A stretch of DNA of 64,000 nt from Deltaproteobacteria bacterium (GTDB lineage: Bacteria > Myxococcota_A > UBA9160 > UBA4427): assembly GCA_002691205.1 (NCBI GenBank), contig NZHD01000020.1:92995-156994 (forward strand), given 5' to 3'. The notes beneath the pieces are model-generated. The model did no database searches. It saw only the letters and a program-made list of their open reading frames with translations, and was not told the origin of the DNA. Of this stretch, positions 1 through 12,794 are shown piece after piece. The position numbers and the translations under genes are program-made. Positions within the stretch are counted from its first letter, which is position 1; the number at the start of each line of letters is the position of its first letter.

Positions 1-789
1 GTGAATCACAGGCAAGCCATCGAGATTCTCCACAGCGCTGTTCAATGTGGCGATTCGCATGAGGTCAGGAGCAATCATGACATTCACAACTTCATCTTCA
101 AGCTCACTCAAGATCTTATCTAGGAATTGGGATTCTTCACTCGATAGAGCCAGGATGACATAATCCACACGGTCTCTAGAGAGAATGGACTTGAGGTCGG
201 TGTACTGCCCAATCACATCCACAGAGCCAACCTTTCGCCCCGACAAGCCATTCGAAAGCGCACCCAGAATACGAAGCCCTGAGCCCAGTTGGCCTTGAAT
301 CCGCTCGATCACTTCCTCGGCCAGCCGACCTTCTCCTAAAACGAGCGCAAAGCGCTGATTGTACCCGCGACTACGCGCTGAACGAAGCACCTTCCGGAGT
401 ACAAACCGTGAGCTGACGAGAAGAAACGGAACCGTCGCTCCGAAAATAATTACGGCACCTCGAGAGTACGAGTAGCTTCGAATAAAGAAGGATAAAGCGA
501 GAAGGAGAACGATGGTCCCGAGAACTGTTCGACCAATATCCCAAGACTCCTCAACGAAAGTCCCCAACCTCTTTGCCTCATAGATCCGGTTACGTCTTGA
601 GAGCACGAACCAGAGAGGCAAGATCACACCCAGAGCCAGTGCATAGTCCTGAATTGGGGGCTGGCCCTTCGTGACCTCAAGTCCCGTCTCAAACCGAAGC
701 CAGTAGGCCAGCATCCAGGCAGCGGCCACCAAAACAAGATCCGCCCCCATAACGAGGCTGCGGAAAATTTCACTGTGGCGATACAGCAC
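1..789 (-). CDS. Undecaprenyl-phosphate glucose phosphotransferase (WcaJ-like), 5' part; runs off the window start
   Basis: Not in the ORF track; translated by hand. GTG at 789 after GAGGT gives MLYRHSEIFRSLVMGADLVLVAAAWMLAYWLRF, several TM helices, then RGYNQRFALVLGEG (CoA-binding-like domain). Confidence 0.8.
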   Translation of the reverse strand, partial: MLYRHSEIFRSLVMGADLVLVAAAWMLAYWLRFETGLEVTKGQPPIQDYALALGVILPLWFVLSRRNRIYEAKRLGTFVEESWDIGRTVLGTIVLLLALSFFIRSYSYSRGAVIIFGATVPFLLVSSRFVLRKVLRSARSRGYNQRFALVLGEGRLAEEVIERIQGQLGSGLRILGALSNGLSGRKVGSVDVIGQYTDLKSILSRDRVDYVILALSSEESQFLDKILSELEDEVVNVMIAPDLMRIATLNSAVENLDGLPVIH

Positions 790-904: not shown

Positions 905-2140
905 TCAAATTCCCGCCTCCTCCGCATCCATCTCGATGGCATCGCGAAGCTCAGAAAGAAAGCTCGGCAAAGCCGAACTCACACGACTCCAGTTTGGAAT
1001 TTGCGGTGCACCCATGGGGTCTCGAACGAAGCTCAGACCTGCCGTCCGCAAGGCCCCCGAAAAAGTCTCCACTGCCACCTCTTCGGCGTGCCGATCAAAC
1101 TCGAGACCATTCAACTTCGCGTCGTTACTGAAGCTCGCAATCGCGTCCTGAGCAGTCCTAACGTATGAGGCGATCATTGTGTTCAAGAAGCCTGCCTCAA
1201 ACTCGACCCCATAACTGGCCAAATTCCGAATCAGGGAGGAGGCGATATCAACGACCATCCTATGAAGACCCGCGTTGGCGTCGTTTTCGGAAAGTTCACG
1301 ATGCTTATGTTCATAATTTTCGACGAGCTCAACCTGACAAACTCGCTTCAGCGCACTGTTGCGAAAGACCTCAGCCAACACGCCGATCTCTAGCCCCCAG
1401 TCCGCAGGGATCCGATTGGCTCGCACCAAATCTGTAGTCATTGAGCACTCTCCAGCAAGTGCGTAACGAAAAGACTCCAGGTATTCCAGAAGGGGGATGG
1501 GCCCCAACACCGCCTTCATCGAGCGAAGCAAAGGCATCATAAAAAGACGCGTCACACGACCGTGCAGCCGATCCGTGACTCGACTGTAATACCCCTTTGC
1601 AAACTCATAATTCATATTCGGATTAGCGGTGGGGTAACACAGCCGGGCCAGCAACTCTCGCTGATAGTTTCGAATATCGCAATCATGAATGGCGACCACA
1701 CGTGACTCTTGAGTCGCCAGCACGTAGCCATAGGCCACCCATGTCGCCAAGCCTTTTCCAGAAGGACCTGGATCCAAACCTTCCTCGCCTAACTGCCTCA
1801 TCAAGGCTTTGAGACGGGGGCCATCGTTCCAAATCACCACCGAGCCTTTGCCCTCAATACAGCGAACAGGCTCAAACAGGTCACGCATCTCTTTGAATTC
1901 ATTTAAGCCAGCGGTACCCGAAAGACTCACCACACATTGTCTCAGATAGGGAACCTGGGAAAGCTCATCTACGATTCCCTTGAGAGCTGGACCTCGCGCT
2001 TCCGAAAACAGGGAGGGCAGCACCAAGGCAATCGGCCTCTCCTCGGAGTAATCCAGGAGCTCTCTCTCTAAGCGCGGCAGATCGGGCTTTCCTAAGCGGT
2101 GCAAGGAAGTCACCACGCCGGTCTGATGAAAATCTGACAT
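905..2140 (-). CDS. gpgS: Glucosyl-3-phosphoglycerate synthase-like glycosyltransferase
   Basis: MSDFHQTGVVTSLHRL start, LVLPSLFSE, DxD motif (IHDCD), AKGYYSRV, YALAGE, DWGLEIGVL; start moved to the second Met. Confidence 0.75.
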   Translation of the reverse strand: MSDFHQTGVVTSLHRLGKPDLPRLERELLDYSEERPIALVLPSLFSEARGPALKGIVDELSQVPYLRQCVVSLSGTAGLNEFKEMRDLFEPVRCIEGKGSVVIWNDGPRLKALMRQLGEEGLDPGPSGKGLATWVAYGYVLATQESRVVAIHDCDIRNYQRELLARLCYPTANPNMNYEFAKGYYSRVTDRLHGRVTRLFMMPLLRSMKAVLGPIPLLEYLESFRYALAGECSMTTDLVRANRIPADWGLEIGVLAEVFRNSALKRVCQVELVENYEHKHRELSENDANAGLHRMVVDIASSLIRNLASYGVEFEAGFLNTMIASYVRTAQDAIASFSNDAKLNGLEFDRHAEEVAVETFSGALRTAGLSFVRDPMGAPQIPNWSRVSSALPSFLSELRDAIEMDAEEAGI

Positions 2141-2182
2141 GGTGCAAGCGTCGCACTCTCCTGCACCCGCTGTCAAGTTCAG

Positions 2183-2560
2183 CTAGTCGACTGCCAAAGC
2201 TTCATATTGAGACGTGATCCGCTCAAGCTTCGCCATGGACACCGAATCAGTCCGATCGAATTCAAACCCGATATCGGTCACCCAAGCATCGGTCTCAGTC
2301 GCCCACGCCACGCGCCCTGAGACGGTGAGCTGCTCTTGACCGATCTCAAACGTCACCGTCAAGACTTCGCCTAATTCGATTTCACACCCGGTCACCTGAA
2401 ACCGAATTCCACCGGCACTTACGTCACGTCCCTGGGCCAAGACCTGATCTCGGCCCGCGGGTGCAATGGTTAAAACCTGATCGGTGGGAATTCGCGGATA
2501 CTTCCGCCTTTCGGGTTCGGGCAAACCCATTAAACCTTGTTGAAACTGATTGTTTTTCAT
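2183..2560 (-). CDS. Single-domain PilZ protein (c-di-GMP receptor)
   Basis: RxxxR (RRKYPR) and DxSxxG (DVSAGG) motifs, followed by GRVAW...IGFEF. Confidence 0.85.
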   Translation of the reverse strand: MKNNQFQQGLMGLPEPERRKYPRIPTDQVLTIAPAGRDQVLAQGRDVSAGGIRFQVTGCEIELGEVLTVTFEIGQEQLTVSGRVAWATETDAWVTDIGFEFDRTDSVSMAKLERITSQYEALAVD

Positions 2561-2630: not shown

Positions 2631-3713
2631 TTACGCCTCAAACAAGTCAAGCTGAGCGTCTTTTTCCCCTGAAATCGCAACCAACCCGGCTGCCACCACC
2701 CCGAGCGAACGCACTTCCGTGACCAGACTCACTTCACACCGATCCAACAAAGACTGGACCGCTCGCTCAAGGTCAAAGCGACTCCCGATAGCGACCGTGA
2801 GAGTTTCGCTCCGAGTCAAACGTGTTTCATCCACGAGCCCCACACGCAGCGCCAAGCGACTTGTTTTCAAACCATGCCGAGCCAGACTTCCTTCAAGGGC
2901 CGTAGATAATCGGGCCAGACAGGCATCCAATGGGCTCCGATCTCGACTGGGGAGAGACAAAGTCTCCTTACGGCTAATCGTCTTCGGGAACCGCGTCGCA
3001 CGAATTACCGAACGATCCCGCCCAGCAGCCATTTCAAGAATAGCCAAACCGTGATTTCCCAACTCCTGCTCCACCACTTTCGTATCGAGTTGCAAAATTT
3101 GTCCCACCGTACGCGCGCCCATCTCTGCCAATCGACTCGCAGTCTTTACGCCAACCCGCGGCAAACGCGAAAGCGAGAGTGGCCCAAGAAAAGCCGCAAC
3201 ATCTGGAGCCTCAACCCATCCAATGCCCTGCTCGCCCGACTCCTCAGCTGCCAAACGTGCCAACATCTTTGAGGGAGCAATCCCGAGCTGAAGCGGAAGC
3301 CCCACCTCCGACCAAGTCAGCCGTACTACTTCTTCTGCCCAACTTGACACATCATGGGCTCGGACCGGGAGCGAACTATACACTTCGCCCAAACTCCCTA
3401 GTTCTAACTTTTGAAGATTTTCCCTCAGACAGCGCACGAGTACACTCGAAACTTCACGATAAAGATCCATACGAGTTGGGCGCACAATCGCATCGGGGCA
3501 AAGCTCAGCCGCCTCGAGCATCGTCATTCCTACGGAAACGCCGACATCTTGCGCTTGCCGGCTCGCCGATTGCACTTTCCCTTTTTTGCCTGGGTCACCT
3601 CCAACGAGGATAGGCTGGCCCACCAGTTTATCATCGGCGCGACGTTCCACCTCGGCATAGAAGTTAGAAACACCCGCAAAAACAATTCTCGCCCTCGACC
3701 CAACGGCTTTCAT
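2631..3713 (-). CDS. DinB/Y-family DNA polymerase homologue lacking catalytic acidic residues (probable pseudo-polymerase)
   Basis: FYAxVE, GIAPSKMLARLA, LPRVGVKTASRL, little-finger region and C-terminal QLDLF are present, but DMD is GVS and SLDE is SLGE. Confidence 0.85.
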   Translation of the reverse strand: MKAVGSRARIVFAGVSNFYAEVERRADDKLVGQPILVGGDPGKKGKVQSASRQAQDVGVSVGMTMLEAAELCPDAIVRPTRMDLYREVSSVLVRCLRENLQKLELGSLGEVYSSLPVRAHDVSSWAEEVVRLTWSEVGLPLQLGIAPSKMLARLAAEESGEQGIGWVEAPDVAAFLGPLSLSRLPRVGVKTASRLAEMGARTVGQILQLDTKVVEQELGNHGLAILEMAAGRDRSVIRATRFPKTISRKETLSLPSRDRSPLDACLARLSTALEGSLARHGLKTSRLALRVGLVDETRLTRSETLTVAIGSRFDLERAVQSLLDRCEVSLVTEVRSLGVVAAGLVAISGEKDAQLDLFEA

Positions 3714-6316
3714 CGAGTGGGCTCCAAGATGAGACGAGCGGTTGTCTCGTCCTCAACGAGCACTCGACTCATAAGCAGCAGGCCCGGCCGGCCCTTTGCC
3801 CAACCTTCCAACCCATCTCCGAAATGTGCACTCTCAGGGAATTCAGACTGACCAGGCGCCAAACTCGTCAGCATCCGGTCCGGAGCCGACAGGTCTACAG
3901 CCATCCGATAGAGGGTCGCTCTATCCGTTTGGAAATCTTCAGAGATTCCGAAAGCCGTTGAAGATAACGTGGCGTCCCCTCCGCCGACTCGGAGTTCAGG
4001 CAGTTGAAGAGAGCCAGAGGGGTCCGGCCCAAAGGCTTCAAACTCGAGACCATGCAGGCCTCCCCACTGCCAGTCTCGACGATCCGGCCCCAACCGTTGT
4101 GACAGCACAACCCATGTCTGTCTGAGCCCCTCATGCACGATTCGCGTGACGTGGTCTCGGTCGGTCCACCCTCCGGCTTCCATACGACGATCTGCAGCCA
4201 CCAAAACCCGCGCCACCAGCGACTGGGGGCGAACGCCGGGTAAAGCCAAATATCTTTCGAGGAGAACGTCTCCGAGAACAGGCCGAAACAGCCGATCGAA
4301 AATCGATTGGATGAGCACAGCGTAGGCTGCGGCTCCCTGACTTGAAGCCGAGAGCTCTCCATCCCAACGAGACAAAATAGACAGGATTTCCTTGGCCTCC
4401 GGACGAAGGGGAGCAACTTGATTTGCGATACTCGATATGGCAGGGACGACTTCGGTCGCCTCAACGTCGCGCACGTCCACTACTAATTCGGCTGCGCTCC
4501 GCAGATCAAGCCTTTCCGGAATTTGATTCGCTCCGGAGCCTTCAAATTCATTCGCCATCATTTCGATTAATATCCGCTCGAGACGTCGCTGGCGAACACC
4601 CGGCTGCCAAGACCATTCAATTTCTGCACGACTTAAACCTGCAGAAAGTCCGCCGTCGGCCACGGCGACCCAAGCACGCTCCGAACGGCCTTCCCCGAGT
4701 GCCTCGGTACCAAGACGAATGATTGGCAGATCCTCGTAAGGAATGGGCCCCCGCCAATCGTAAATTCTCATACGCCCAGGAACCGGCACCAACCGAGAAG
4801 GCAATGTTCTCCGGGGTAGCCAACCCGCCCATTGCATCCCGCCCTGCCCCTGATTGTCCGCGTAAACAACTGCAACCACCGGCTCGTGATGTGAACGCAA
4901 CGCAGCTACGAGTCCAGAGGCATCCCGTGCTTGGACAACTTCTAAAAACGAGGCGATCCCATTGCCCGGACGGGAACCCGTCCACGCCAAGGAGTGGGGT
5001 GGACGTTCCGTTAAGCCACGTGGCTTCAAGCCTTCGCGAGCCAAAGACAAAGAATCTGAAAATAAGCCATCGATAAGGGGACCGTGGCGAGTCGAGCGAA
5101 TACGAAACTCCTCCTCACCCAACCCTCCCGGCTTCAATATCCCAATCTTTTCCACTCGCTCTTCAAGATCCACCCAGCCCTGACCATCATGGTAGATCTC
5201 TCCCGATTGACGCAATGTCTCTTGATAGAGATCGGCCGTTACGGCCCCGGACGGAAGAGCGGCCCAAGCCAAATCCAAATTTCGCCCCGCCCAGAACACA
5301 GGGACACCCGGCACGGTCACACCGGCCACATTCAGAGAAGCCCCCTGAAGTTGAACCTGATAGAAGAGCGAAGGCACCGTCGGTGGCAGTTGATAATCTG
5401 CCACTAACGATGGAGCACCGCTCTCTGTATACATTCCGGCCAGAACCCAAGCCGTGCCGCCAAAAATCCGAGCTGCCTTTAAGAAGTCGGAAGACCCGAG
5501 CGAGGGCTCGCCTCGATTCAGCCCGTCCGGTACGTCTCGATACACCGGAGGCGAGCCTTCTGAATCCACGCCCGACGGGTCCCCTGCAATGCTCGCCGGT
5601 CTAAACAATCTCGCCCATCGACCTCCGAGGGATCGGATCAAATCATCCAGAACTAACTCTGTCTGAATCCCATTGCTCGTCTCCCACGCAATCAGCTTCG
5701 AAATCGCCAAACTATCTACAGGACCCCAGTCTTTCTCGACTTTTCCTGAGGCCCCGTTCAGTTCCTTGGCCACCCCACGATCCGTATCCCTCAGCCCCAA
5801 CCCCAAATTGACCCCGCGTGAGTAGGCCTCAAGGACTGACCGAGTCCTCTCATCCAACCGAGCCCATTCCTCCTGAGCGAGCTTCGCCAGTCCCAAAGTT
5901 CGGACCAATTGGTCGGTTCCAAGAGCCGATTCCCCGAGGACCTCCGAGATCGTCCCCTCCGCCAAGCGACGCAACCAAAGCATCTGAGATGGACGGTCAT
6001 AGGCGTGGGCGAGCCCTAAAGAGAGCCAGGCATCCATATCCTCTCGCGCTTCCACGTGCGGAACACCTCGGCCGTCCCACAAAATCTCGACCCTCGAGGA
6101 CAGGCCTCCTGTCACCTCTAGAGTAAGATCAAGCGGCGTCGAAGCACGCTTGACCCGCAGGTACTCTGCCCCCCAGCCCAAACCGAGCACAAGAACCACG
6201 AGTCCAAGAAGGATGGCCCCGATCCTCTGCGTACCGCCTCGCTCCGCAAAACCGCTCCAAATGCGACTCAGATTCAGGCCTTCGCTGCGTCCCACATTGA
6301 ACCCCACAATTGGCAA
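3710..6316 (-). CDS. Penicillin acylase family (S45, Ntn hydrolase) homologue with N-terminal TM anchor; nucleophile Ser absent
   Basis: DGRGVPHVEA, GLAHAYDR, PSLFYQ, GVTVPGVP, GRN..LAW, RSTRHGP, PGQSE motifs; GSNxW reads GGTAW. Start codon uncertain. Confidence 0.85.
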   Translation of the reverse strand: MPIVGFNVGRSEGLNLSRIWSGFAERGGTQRIGAILLGLVVLVLGLGWGAEYLRVKRASTPLDLTLEVTGGLSSRVEILWDGRGVPHVEAREDMDAWLSLGLAHAYDRPSQMLWLRRLAEGTISEVLGESALGTDQLVRTLGLAKLAQEEWARLDERTRSVLEAYSRGVNLGLGLRDTDRGVAKELNGASGKVEKDWGPVDSLAISKLIAWETSNGIQTELVLDDLIRSLGGRWARLFRPASIAGDPSGVDSEGSPPVYRDVPDGLNRGEPSLGSSDFLKAARIFGGTAWVLAGMYTESGAPSLVADYQLPPTVPSLFYQVQLQGASLNVAGVTVPGVPVFWAGRNLDLAWAALPSGAVTADLYQETLRQSGEIYHDGQGWVDLEERVEKIGILKPGGLGEEEFRIRSTRHGPLIDGLFSDSLSLAREGLKPRGLTERPPHSLAWTGSRPGNGIASFLEVVQARDASGLVAALRSHHEPVVAVVYADNQGQGGMQWAGWLPRRTLPSRLVPVPGRMRIYDWRGPIPYEDLPIIRLGTEALGEGRSERAWVAVADGGLSAGLSRAEIEWSWQPGVRQRRLERILIEMMANEFEGSGANQIPERLDLRSAAELVVDVRDVEATEVVPAISSIANQVAPLRPEAKEILSILSRWDGELSASSQGAAAYAVLIQSIFDRLFRPVLGDVLLERYLALPGVRPQSLVARVLVAADRRMEAGGWTDRDHVTRIVHEGLRQTWVVLSQRLGPDRRDWQWGGLHGLEFEAFGPDPSGSLQLPELRVGGGDATLSSTAFGISEDFQTDRATLYRMAVDLSAPDRMLTSLAPGQSEFPESAHFGDGLEGWAKGRPGLLLMSRVLVEDETTARLILEPTR

Positions 6317-9109: not shown

Positions 9110-9985
9110 TCAGAGTGAGAGCGGAGAGTGGTCCAAGCCTAAATCTAAACAGGCGGCTGAGTGTGTGATCCAACCCACCGAAATTAAGTCGACCCCGGCA
9201 TCCGCCACTAAGCGAACCGTCTCAAGAGTGATGCCTCCCGAAGCCTCGAGCACGGCTCGGTTTTCATTTCGCTTTACCGCTTCTCGCAATGTTTCCGGCG
9301 ACATGTTGTCAAGCAAGATGATCTCTACACCCACTTCGAGCGCCTCATTCAACTGCTCGAGAGTGTCGACCTCAACTTCAATCCGAACCATATGACCCAC
9401 GTTGGCGCGAGCCGCCTCGACGGCCTGCCTCACCCCTCCGGCCATCGCGAGGTGGTTGTCTTTGATCAAAACTGCATCATCGAGTCCAAATCGATGATTT
9501 ACACCCCCTCCCATTCGAACGGCGTGCTTTTCGAACACTCGCATTCCCGGCGTCGTCTTGCGGGTGCAACAGATTTGCGCCGCCGTGCCTTCGACGGCTT
9601 GAACCAAACGGTGCGTCGCAGTGGCAATACCGGAGAGGTGCCCTAAAAAATTAAGCGCCGTTCTCTCTGCCGTGAGAATGGCACGCGCATTCCCATTTAG
9701 AATGAAAAGCGGATCGCCGGGAAGAACATCGCTTCCATCGCCCTTCTGAACCTCGATTTTGATCCCGCGATCAAGCTGCCTAAAAGAGGCCACCGCCAAG
9801 TCTACGCCGGCAATTCGGCCCGCTTCTCGCGCAGAAATTGTGCCGGAAAGCATAGCGTCCACGGGCACCACTGAGTTCGTCGTAATATCTCCCGCACGCC
9901 CGAGATCCTCGGCCAGCGCATGACGAACGGAATCTTCCACAGCCCCTACGGGCAAAGCACCCACCATTCTGGACGTATCACTCAT
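9110..9985 (-). CDS. nadC: Nicotinate-nucleotide diphosphorylase (carboxylating)
   Basis: LAEDLG, ERTALNFL, CTRKTTPG, HRFGLDDAVLIKDNH, EVEVDT, LLDNM, EASGGI; start moved to MSDTSR after GGAG. Confidence 0.95.
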   Translation of the reverse strand: MSDTSRMVGALPVGAVEDSVRHALAEDLGRAGDITTNSVVPVDAMLSGTISAREAGRIAGVDLAVASFRQLDRGIKIEVQKGDGSDVLPGDPLFILNGNARAILTAERTALNFLGHLSGIATATHRLVQAVEGTAAQICCTRKTTPGMRVFEKHAVRMGGGVNHRFGLDDAVLIKDNHLAMAGGVRQAVEAARANVGHMVRIEVEVDTLEQLNEALEVGVEIILLDNMSPETLREAVKRNENRAVLEASGGITLETVRLVADAGVDLISVGWITHSAACLDLGLDHSPLSL

Positions 9986-10014
9986 CGCTGCTCTCCACCT
10001 CAGAAAAAGATCTA

Positions 10015-11640
10015 TCACTTCAACGTAGCAAGAAATTGATTCGCCTCTTTGAGCGTGATCCAACTCCTTTTAGCCTGACCTAAATCCATCGAAGGAAAGT
10101 CAGCCCGGAAGTGACTCCCTCGACTTTCGCACCGAAGGTAAGCGGACGTTGCGATCAACCTCGCGGTTAATGCAGCGCTGGCAATCGAGCTGGAACGTCC
10201 ACTGGCCTCAGATTCAATTCGAGCGGTTTCTTTCACCGCGTGTTTCAGCCCGTCAGCTGTCCGGACCACTCCCACTGAATCCGACATGAGCGTACGCAGG
10301 GAATCGACGAGGACTGAGAGATCCGAATCCTGTCCGACTGCTCCATGGATTTTAGTTTTCGCCGGATCAATCTCGGGCACCGCGCCTACACTCGCCGCGA
10401 TAGAATCTGCGCAACGGGCGCTAAAGACAAGTCCCTCAAGCATGGAATTAGAAGCAAGTCGATTGGCTCCGTGCACACCGCCGGAGGCGGACTCGCCGCA
10501 CGCCCACAGGCCACTGACCGTGGTTCGCCCCTCTGCATCTGTGGCAATCCCGCCCATATGGTAATGCTCCGCAGGCGCAATTGGAATTCGCTCTGTCGCA
10601 GGATCAATCCCAACGCGTCGGCAAGACTCCGCAACCGTAGGGAAAGCCTCTTCAAAACGGCTGCCTATCGCCTCTCGACAATCAAGGAATGCCCCTTTTC
10701 CCCCTTGGAGTTGTTCATCGACACCGCGCGCGACCACATCACGAGGAGCCAGCTCTCCGGCGGGATGCAACTCGGACATAAAGCGGTCACCTGACTTCGT
10801 GACCAAAAGAGCGCCTTCGCCTCGAATGGACTCGGTTGCCAGAGGAGCGGGGGAAAGTCCAACATTCATCGCCGTCGGATGAAACTGCACAAACTCAAGA
10901 TCGGCCAGTTCAGCACCAACTCGAGCCGCCATGGCAATGCCCTCACCTATGGTCTCGGGGGGGTTTGTGGTCACTCGATAGAGACCTCCAATTCCCCCTG
11001 TGGCCAACAGCACCGCCTTAGCCAGAACTACGGTCTCGCCCGAAGGATTGCTCTTAGTGGCTTCACCGCGAACAAATGCACCTGACACGCGGTCACCGGA
11101 CATCACAAGCGCTTCAGCCGAAGCTTCCTCAATAATCCGAATTTTGTTTGAACTCCGAACCAGAGGAACGATCGTCTCCATAAACGCGCGACCTGTCCTG
11201 TCCCCCCCAACTCCAATCACACGATCGGCTTCATGTGCCGCCTCTCGATGAAGTCGAAACGAACCATCAGGATGACGATCAAATGGAACCCCCAGATCAA
11301 CCAGTTCCTGAATTCGCCCTGGCGCCTCGCGTGTCATCAATCCGACCACGTCCGGATCACAAATCCCTGCCCCTGCCGCCAAGGTGTCGTCAGCATGCTG
11401 GGTGACACTGTCATCCACCCCCAGAGCCGCCGCGAAGCCCGCTTGGGCCCAGGTGGTCGAAGACCCCACCGATAGGCTGGACTTAAGAATGAGCGTCACA
11501 GAAAGGGGGGCGAGACGTAGCGCGGTCATCAAACCAGCAATGCCGCCGCCTACGATCAACACATCACAACGAGCATGCACATAGGACGAAATCGTCACTG
11601 CGGTTTCTCTACCTGAAGAGGACACTACTCGATGAGTCAA
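10015..11640 (-). CDS. nadB: L-aspartate oxidase
   Basis: GGGIAG, WAQAG, EAAH, ATGGIG, QFHPT, LAPRD, AEHYHMGG, HGANRLASNS, ESRGSHFR. Confidence 0.95.
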   Translation of the reverse strand: MTHRVVSSSGRETAVTISSYVHARCDVLIVGGGIAGLMTALRLAPLSVTLILKSSLSVGSSTTWAQAGFAAALGVDDSVTQHADDTLAAGAGICDPDVVGLMTREAPGRIQELVDLGVPFDRHPDGSFRLHREAAHEADRVIGVGGDRTGRAFMETIVPLVRSSNKIRIIEEASAEALVMSGDRVSGAFVRGEATKSNPSGETVVLAKAVLLATGGIGGLYRVTTNPPETIGEGIAMAARVGAELADLEFVQFHPTAMNVGLSPAPLATESIRGEGALLVTKSGDRFMSELHPAGELAPRDVVARGVDEQLQGGKGAFLDCREAIGSRFEEAFPTVAESCRRVGIDPATERIPIAPAEHYHMGGIATDAEGRTTVSGLWACGESASGGVHGANRLASNSMLEGLVFSARCADSIAASVGAVPEIDPAKTKIHGAVGQDSDLSVLVDSLRTLMSDSVGVVRTADGLKHAVKETARIESEASGRSSSIASAALTARLIATSAYLRCESRGSHFRADFPSMDLGQAKRSWITLKEANQFLATLK

Positions 11641-11643
11641 TCA

Positions 11644-12762
11644 CTACGCGAAAGATCGCGCAACGCCTCCCACCAAAGCCACATCCTGACCCGTGCCGGT
11701 CAAGTTCCATGCCAAACGCCCCTCTGGAGGCGCTCCAATTTCCAACATCCGCTCCACTGATCGGCGTGCACGCACGGCCATCTCAGTGGGAACATTGACT
11801 TCGCCGTGACCGTAAACTAGAGAATCAAGAATCCGCGGCAACGTGATTCTTTTCATATGCGGGCAGAGATTACATGGGCGTACAAAATCAACGTCGGGTA
11901 ACTCAGCTGCCACGTTGTCGCTCATTGAACACTCGGTGAGCATGACCACGCGAGCCGGTCTCTTTTCTTGAACAAACTTGATCATGCCAGAAGTCGACCC
12001 TGCGAAGTCAGAGGCCTCCAGGACTTCAGGAGAGCACTCAGGATGAGCCAGCACCGTGAGATTCGGATCACTTGCTCGATAGGACTTAATCTCATCCGCG
12101 CTAAATCGCTCATGAACCTCACATCGGCCTCTCCAAGCCAAGATCTCAACATCTGTCTGCCGCGCCACATTCTGTGCCAAATATTCATCCGGCAAAAGAA
12201 GCACTCGATCTACACCGAGAGATTCAACCACGTGCAACGCATTCGAAGAGGTGCAGCAAACATCCGTTTCGGCCTTCACATCCGCAGGTGTGTTCACGTA
12301 ACTCACCACAGGCACGCCCGGGTATTCTGCCCGAAGCCGCCTGACGTCTGCGCCGGTCATTGACTCCGCCAGAGAACACCCGGCTCGCTGGTCCGGAATA
12401 AGCACCACTTTCTCAGGGTTAAGAATTTTGGCCGTCTCGGCCATAAAATGAACACCCGCGAGAACGATCACATCGGCATCGGTCTCAGCCGCTTCTTTCG
12501 CAAGGGCCAGGGAATCGCCGACGATGTCCGCGACGCCATGAAAGATTTCAGGTGTCATGTAATTATGCGCAAGAATGACGGCGTTTTTCTCACGCTTAAC
12601 TTCGTTGATGGCTTTCACGTAGGGCGCAAAGACAGGCCACTCCACCTCAGGAATGACCTGAGAGAGTCTTTCGTAAATCGGACGGACCGCCTTTTCGACC
12701 TCAGGCGTGTAATCAAGATTCGGCAGCTTCTCACCCTGATCTGAAACCTGAAAATTTGGCAT
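11644..12762 (-). CDS. nadA: Quinolinate synthase
   Basis: LAHNY, GDSL, GVHFMAE, GCSLA, YVNT, CCTSSNA, AHPEC, CPHMK; likely start MPNFQ at 12762 after AAGGGG. Confidence 0.95.
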
Positions 12763-12773
12763 GCCAAAGCCCC

Positions 12774-12794
12774 TTATGCTCAAAATGAGTATAT
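12774..12794. promoter_or_regulatory. NadQ-type operator
   Basis: TTATGCTCAAAATGAGTATAT matches the palindromic ttATRCTCannntGAGYATaa consensus; it abuts the nadA RBS and lies downstream of a NadQ-like gene. Confidence 0.8.

Follow-up and report, generated by a model that had tools for sequence, protein, structure and literature searches.

Acylases of the S45 family have been studied as enzymes, for the manufacture of beta-lactams, for quorum quenching, and for the maturation of siderophores. Here we describe an S45 homologue, encoded in a 64-kb stretch of deltaproteobacterial DNA (contig NZHD01000020.1; hereafter the window, whose positions serve as coordinates throughout), in which, judged from its sequence, the N-terminal nucleophile (Ntn) and both elements of the oxyanion hole are missing. 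Its gene is the open reading frame (ORF) at 3710..6316 on the minus strand, the strand of every feature given below. The protein probably stays unprocessed and, with no hydrolytic function, would bind a ligand or serve as a scaffold. Its large clade of uncultured marine Myxococcota most likely conserves a variant of this well-known enzyme family that has lost catalysis. No description of natural S45 proteins without the nucleophile was found in a full-text literature search.

Active-site replacements

The acylase-like frame is intact over 868 codons from TTG 6316. The database copy of the protein begins three codons downstream at GTG 6307, giving 865 amino acids, and this GTG is likely the true start; the GGGGG upstream of it is better spaced than for the TTG. 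The protein matches PF01804 (Penicil_amidase) over the full length of the profile (positions 2 to 663 of 675; 448.8 bits, E = 6.9e-134), far above the gathering score of 21.3 bits, which places it in the family. A genome search found no other PF01804 gene in the source genome. Identity as a PvdQ equivalog was ruled out, the NCBIfam PvdQ match being weak and partial at 19 bits against a cutoff of 950.

A sequence-only reading of this DNA had quoted four motifs at the active site (GTAW, VADYQL, WAALP, and ADG), and all four are present as described, at G286-G287-T288-A289-W290, V305-A-D-Y-Q-L310, W351-A-A-L-P355, and A553-D554-G555. It had also proposed alignment with penicillin G acylase (PGA), PvdQ, and N-acylhomoserine lactone (AHL) acylases, and that comparison puts Gly287 (codon GGC, 5456..5458) at the Ser-beta1 nucleophile position by four concordant methods. 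First, phmmer against D-succinylase pairs GRSLGSNNWVIAG, which contains GSNNW, with ARIFGGTAWVLAG, which contains GGTAW. Second, in a profile built from 124 relatives, position 257, the Gly287 column, coincides with the first residue in about 40 different solved beta chains, among them those of PGA, cephalosporin acylase, and PvdQ. The third and fourth, a 244-sequence MAFFT alignment that includes the Escherichia coli PGA beta chain (1gk9_B) and hmmalign, returned the same mapping. In this register, Ser-beta1, Asn-beta2, Trp-beta4, Gln-beta23, Thr-beta68, Ala-beta69, Asn-beta241, and Arg-beta263 of PGA correspond to Gly287, Thr288, Trp290, Gln309, Leu354, Pro355, Asp554, and Arg575, respectively, of the window protein.

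The active site of E. coli PGA consists of betaS1, betaA69, and betaN241 (PMC9340067). All three elements are replaced in the window protein: Ser by Gly287, Ala by Pro355 (5252..5254), and Asn by Asp554 (4655..4657). An S45 enzyme carries Ser, Thr, or Cys at beta1 after the processing-site Gly, and here that position is Gly. The oxyanion side chain Asn-beta241, present in 81 of 81 canonical relatives, is Asp. The other half of the oxyanion hole is formed by the backbone NH of beta69; because proline has no amide proton, Pro355 would remove that half. Since all three sequence-level requirements fail, we would file the protein as a non-catalytic homologue and not as a penicillin or AHL acylase. 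One of the quoted motifs carries less weight than had been supposed: VADYQL does stand where ANDPHL is expected, but its Gln at beta23 cannot be counted as a loss, since the same residue occupies beta23 in E. coli PGA.

Other parts of the pocket are kept. The PGA acyl-pocket positions stay hydrophobic, at Trp342 (97% conserved), Leu317 (97%), Leu310, Phe457, and Val481, and Arg575 (4592..4594; the equivalent of Arg-beta263) and His/Gln309 at beta23 persist in the clade. These retained hydrophobic and polar positions fit a cleft that may still be in use.

The neighboring Thr288 had been put forward as a shifted nucleophile, one residue along, exposed by cleavage between Gly287 and Thr288. Thr288 is indeed conserved in the nearest subclade of 18 tips, which reads GGT or GAT. 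Across the Ser-less clade, however, Gly fills position 288 in about 40% and the rest have Ser, Thr, Ala, or His there, both oxyanion-hole elements are lost as well, and a shift of one residue on a beta strand would turn the side chain the opposite way. We regard this alternative as very improbable.

Comparison with known acylases

The best match among characterized proteins, by phmmer (E = 6e-20) and by profile (E = 3e-154), is D-succinylase from Cupriavidus sp. P4-10-C (7eby/7ea4), which is an Ntn hydrolase of family S45. It too runs from an alpha domain through a spacer to a beta domain. Its GSNNW and ANENN stand against GGTAW and ADGG in the window protein, which also has Pro at beta69, and the two are only 22% identical. 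E. coli PGA (1gk9) and the cephalosporin, PvdQ, and MacQ acylases are homologous over both chains. The window protein keeps Trp-beta4, Gln-beta23 (as in PGA), and Arg-beta263 of these enzymes, whereas Ser-beta1, Ala-beta69 (NH), and Asn-beta241 are replaced and the calcium-site Asp-beta73 is Val. The PGA-type acylases also have a cleaved signal peptide, in contrast to the probably uncleaved membrane anchor described below. The same kind of beta1 substitution exists in the S1G form of KcPGA (4pem, among the Foldseek matches) and in MacQ S210A. Those two were made in the laboratory from active enzymes, whereas the state in the window protein is natural, clade-wide, and joined by further active-site changes.

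Predicted fold, membrane anchor, and spacer

AlphaFold2 run on the 124-sequence alignment gave a mean predicted local distance difference test score (pLDDT) of 89.6 and a predicted template modeling score of 0.91. The model lays out an N-terminal helix (residues 29 to 58), a helical alpha domain, a low-confidence linker (residues 241 to 285), and a confident beta domain. The top Foldseek match was D-succinylase 7eby (E = 2e-45, TMt 0.83), and D-succinylase, cephalosporin acylase precursors, MacQ, PGA, and PvdQ were all matched at a probability of 1.00. We are confident, on this model, that the two-domain acylase fold (a helical alpha domain plus an alpha-beta-beta-alpha Ntn core) is present. 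The alpha-chain-like helical domain spans residues 76 to 240 (5597..6091), as placed by Pfam and alignments with PDB alpha chains, with pLDDT mostly above 90; the beta-chain-like domain spans residues 287 to 868 (3713..5458), as placed by profile, AlphaFold2, and Foldseek.

Membrane anchoring, which the sequence-only reading had inferred, is supported by a hydrophobic N-terminal segment at residues 32 to 50 (6167..6223), with a Kyte-Doolittle mean of 2.37 and within the modeled helix. The segment is kept in all sequence classes, and the Arg-rich flank on its N-terminal side in relatives indicates an N-in, domain-out topology. By eye, no good signal-peptidase site follows the helix in the sequence. 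The helix is thus probably an uncleaved signal anchor, with the domain facing the periplasm. The spacer-equivalent linker (5462..5596) is variable in sequence and modeled at a pLDDT of 56 to 71; its median length is 43 to 49 residues in all classes, and it is not shortened relative to that of Ser-bearing relatives.

Phylogeny and the course of nucleophile loss

Word-index and exhaustive hidden Markov model searches gave 262 relatives; PF01804 proteins altogether count 12,505 representatives at E <= 0.001. A FastTree phylogeny was built on 244 near-full-length sequences, including 81 canonical Ser/Asn sequences, 43 Ser/Asp sequences, and 116 without Ser. The canonical class has GSN, His23, Thr68, Asn241-Asn, and Arg263; every member has Ser1 and Asn241, and 94% have Asp73, a calcium ligand in PGA. 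Within it lies a derived clade (support 0.999; 43 Ser-bearing members) that keeps Ser, has Asp at beta241, has lost Asp73, and carries a GQSEHPxHPH-type segment where canonical sequences have GQSG. Nested in that clade in turn is a third one (support 1.0), nearly all of whose members have Gly, Ala, or Val at beta1; beta69 is Pro in 95%, and Thr68 has become Val, Ile, or Leu. Fitch parsimony counted seven changes between Ser and non-Ser, with Ser at the root. The window protein sits in a clade of 100 tips (sequence-cluster representatives) in which Ser occurs in none and beta1 is Gly, Ala, or Val in all.

Isolated Ser-less tips, each an independent loss in a single lineage, also occur in otherwise canonical acylase clades. 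Three of them (P0258, P0252, and P0239) have replaced His23, Thr68, Asn241, or Arg263 as well, and in two others the decay is partial, P0181 keeping Asn241 and P0138 keeping Arg263. That these sporadic lineages are altered elsewhere in the catalytic set shows nucleophile loss to be repeatedly accompanied by catalytic-site decay. Thr354, Asn555, His376/Asp377, and Arg798 are the columns whose state follows that of Ser within the orthologue group of the window protein. The residue-185 column, presumably an alpha-chain calcium ligand, is Glu in 96% of canonical relatives and Ala or variable in the clade; the window protein has Glu185.

The Ser-bearing sister group (P0108, P0045, P0127, and about 40 others) has Asp at beta241, has lost Asp73, and in most members has lost Glu185; it is an uncharacterized S45 state and may be an unusual enzyme in its own right. 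A sister subclade of 47 tips (P0063, P0080, P0085, and about 44 more; locus L006) has the motif P-[TS]-G-G-A-W, which puts a Thr or Ser immediately ahead of the old nucleophile position; at 555 and 557 this subclade has Gln and Trp, respectively.

The sublineage of the window protein itself (P0001 and P0003 to P0007) departs from the clade at 19 to 29 clade-conserved sites, where the median is 8.5. Among the changes are R80W, Q106Y/R, L569S, R571Q, H826F/R/K/D, and H829S, in what looks, from the alignment, like a second wave of remodeling.

Synteny and orthology

Using tblastn, we compared 87 fetched loci grouped by the identity of their acylase-like protein to the query. All 14 loci at 36% identity or more have pgk upstream and, immediately downstream, a gene for a Y-family-polymerase-like (IMS) protein; 7 of these acylase-like proteins have Ser and 7 do not. 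The IMS-like gene is present in none of the 73 loci at 33% identity or less among the matches listed, a set made up mostly of canonical acylases from other phyla. A family-wide search of genome contigs gave no cultured close relative among the matches listed. The Gly-, Ala-, "PTGG"-, and Ser-type loci share one arrangement: secG-tpiA-pgk(-gap) lies on one side, divergent, and on the other follow, in order, the acylase-like gene, the IMS-like gene, a PilZ gene, a conserved gene of about 410 codons, and sugar-transferase genes. The common pgk/acylase-like/IMS order makes the Ser-less and Ser-bearing proteins positional orthologues and indicates that Ser was lost in place.

The Ser-bearing syntenic orthologues in other Myxococcota MAGs (for example, P0108 and P0045; loci L007, L008, L010 to L013, and L015) are 41 to 47% identical to the window protein, share with it Asp at beta241 and the N-terminal anchor, and lie in the same neighborhood of pgk, acylase-like, dead IMS, PilZ, and GpgS-like genes. 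Unlike the window protein, the Ser-bearing comparison set keeps the processing-site Gly-Ser, Thr-beta68 (17/17), and Asn at 555 (15/17); Thr-beta68 is not kept at the Ser-bearing loci L010, L011, L013, and L015.

The source organism is an uncultured bacterium of the marine plankton, and close homologues are labeled as Myxococcota or Deltaproteobacteria metagenome-assembled genomes (MAGs). Four loci (L011, L012, L014, and L015) are titled "uncultured Spirochaetales" or "Spirochaetaceae" and yet have the same pgk/acylase-like/IMS order as the Myxococcota MAGs; these record labels may be wrong.

Selection and authenticity of the Gly287 codon

Eight genomes were compared, namely the window and seven further loci, two of which have identical acylase genes. 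For the same genome pairs, pairwise identity was 43 to 64% for the acylase-like protein, 46 to 71% for triosephosphate isomerase (TIM), and 60 to 74% for phosphoglycerate kinase. Ser-less pairs are 44 to 64% identical, no more diverged than the Ser-keeping pair (51%), and 207 columns are conserved at 85% or more in the Ser-less clade. This TIM-like divergence points to purifying selection; by these comparisons, the gene is not decaying. A redundant, decaying paralogue was likewise ruled out by the TIM-like rate and by the gene being the only PF01804 member in its genome.

The sequence-only reading had held that Ser at this position, in reads or in orthologues, would count against it. At least 20 metagenome runs, marine and aquatic, contain the window stretch, and in three independent ones (X1, X3, and X4) contigs span the Gly287 codon unchanged as GGC. 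Ser does occur in orthologues, but only in the more distant syntenic ones, which argues for evolutionary loss in place and not for a sequencing error.

That the gene is a decaying pseudogene, or that Gly287 is a sequencing or assembly artifact, could draw on GGC being a single base away from the Ser codon AGC. Against this stand the intact 868-codon frame, the conservation at the level of TIM, the confident fold prediction, the same codon in three independent runs, and a beta1 residue of Gly, Ala, or Val throughout the 100-tip clade. Both the pseudogene and the sequencing-error readings are excluded.

Neighboring genes

The IMS/DinB-like gene (2631..3713; 360 amino acids) overlaps the acylase-like stop codon by ATGA at 3710..3713, and in seven gene-called loci it abuts or overlaps that stop by 4 nucleotides or fewer. 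The conserved overlap suggests co-expression and does not by itself establish a joint function. In every aligned locus (the window and L002 to L015), the IMS-like protein has neither the Asp pair of motif I nor the acidic pair of SxDE, and these catalytic acids are missing also where the acylase keeps Ser. The protein ends in QLDLFEA in the window, and a QL[DE]LF beta-clamp-type motif is terminal in every aligned locus. It resembles ImuB and is shorter; as DNA polymerase IV it scores below the NCBIfam cutoff (168 versus 389 bits).

Further along lies a PilZ-domain gene (2183..2560), followed by a 423-amino-acid GpgS-like protein (905..2176) with no Pfam match and an NCBIfam match to glucosyl-3-phosphoglycerate synthase (NF040724; E = 1e-100, 337 bits, cutoff 700). 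This is the most conserved protein of the cluster, at 70 to 89% identity across loci, and its gene lies near gap-pgk-tpiA, that is, near the pathway around 3-phosphoglycerate. At 1..789, in the same orientation as the PilZ gene, lies the coding sequence for the N-terminal portion of a WcaJ/EPS-type polyprenyl glycosylphosphotransferase; relatives keep the order of these two, some with an extra PMT_2 gene. A nadC-nadB-nadA cluster lies just past secG (9110..12783), and the same genes flank L002. PADLOC gave no defense-system match for the acylase-like, IMS-like, PilZ, or GpgS-like protein.

Discussion

We favor the reading in which the window protein would be a single-chain protein of S45 fold, anchored by its N-terminal helix with its domain toward the periplasm. 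Ntn acylases require the beta1 side chain for their self-cleavage. With Gly at beta1, no side chain is available for the N-to-O acyl shift, so that autoproteolysis would not occur and the spacer would stay attached. Ntn-type amide hydrolysis would be lost, no acyl-enzyme would form, and the protein would be retained for a non-hydrolytic job, either ligand binding in the retained hydrophobic cleft or a role as a structural partner. There is precedent for the lack of processing in the MacQ S210A mutant, which is uncleaved (PMC5566955). Of the earlier description as an uncleaved pseudo-acylase, the loss of the nucleophile and of the oxyanion elements holds, and the uncleaved state would follow from Gly at beta1 and the MacQ precedent. 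The further suggestion that the protein may bind acyl-amides such as AHL-like signals is purely speculative.

Three observations weigh against this reading. MacQ S210A, though uncleaved, still degraded several AHLs (PMC5566955), so loss of the nucleophile is no strict proof that all activity is lost. The clade conserves polar residues that may lie near the old site, namely Asp554, Arg575, His/Gln309, and, in most members, Glu825 with His826 and His829; another kind of catalytic site, or a metal site, might be built from them. Finally, clade-conserved residues are lost in the sublineage of the window protein, where the role of the clade may have been altered again.

The first two of these points bear on a rival view, in which the protein is still an enzyme, using general-base or metal-assisted chemistry that arose while Ser was kept beside Asp241 and that then made Ser dispensable. 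The Ser-keeping Asp241 clade does precede the loss of Ser in the tree; Asp554, Glu825, His826, His829, His476, Arg515, and Arg571 were gained and are common to the Ser-keeping and Ser-less clades; and the rate of divergence is unchanged after Ser loss. Yet His826, His829, and Arg571 are replaced in the window sublineage, so that such a site would be broken here, and once Ser is lost, decay sets in at Thr354 and at position 555, an Asn in Ser-bearing orthologues. A full-text literature search turned up no S45 member with such a mechanism. We consider this view rather unlikely.

A broader proposal, which we offer as a distinctly unlikely one, is that the acylase-like protein and the translationally coupled dead Y-family polymerase make up a conserved two-pseudoenzyme module specific to a myxobacterial superclade, for which amide hydrolysis was never required. 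If true, it would explain how the nucleophile could be lost repeatedly with no change in evolutionary rate, and the S45 fold would act on the envelope side, as a receptor or scaffold for, say, an acylated molecule.

In this case an old marine Myxococcota clade keeps a nucleophile-less protein as its only S45 homologue, under constraint of a housekeeping level. The steps form a natural series, from canonical acylases through the change of Asn241 to Asp with Ser in place, to the loss of Ser and further remodeling, in which the use of the Ntn fold after catalysis could be studied. A further caution is that automatic labels such as "penicillin acylase family protein" over-call the quorum-quenching or antibiotic-degrading potential of metagenomes.

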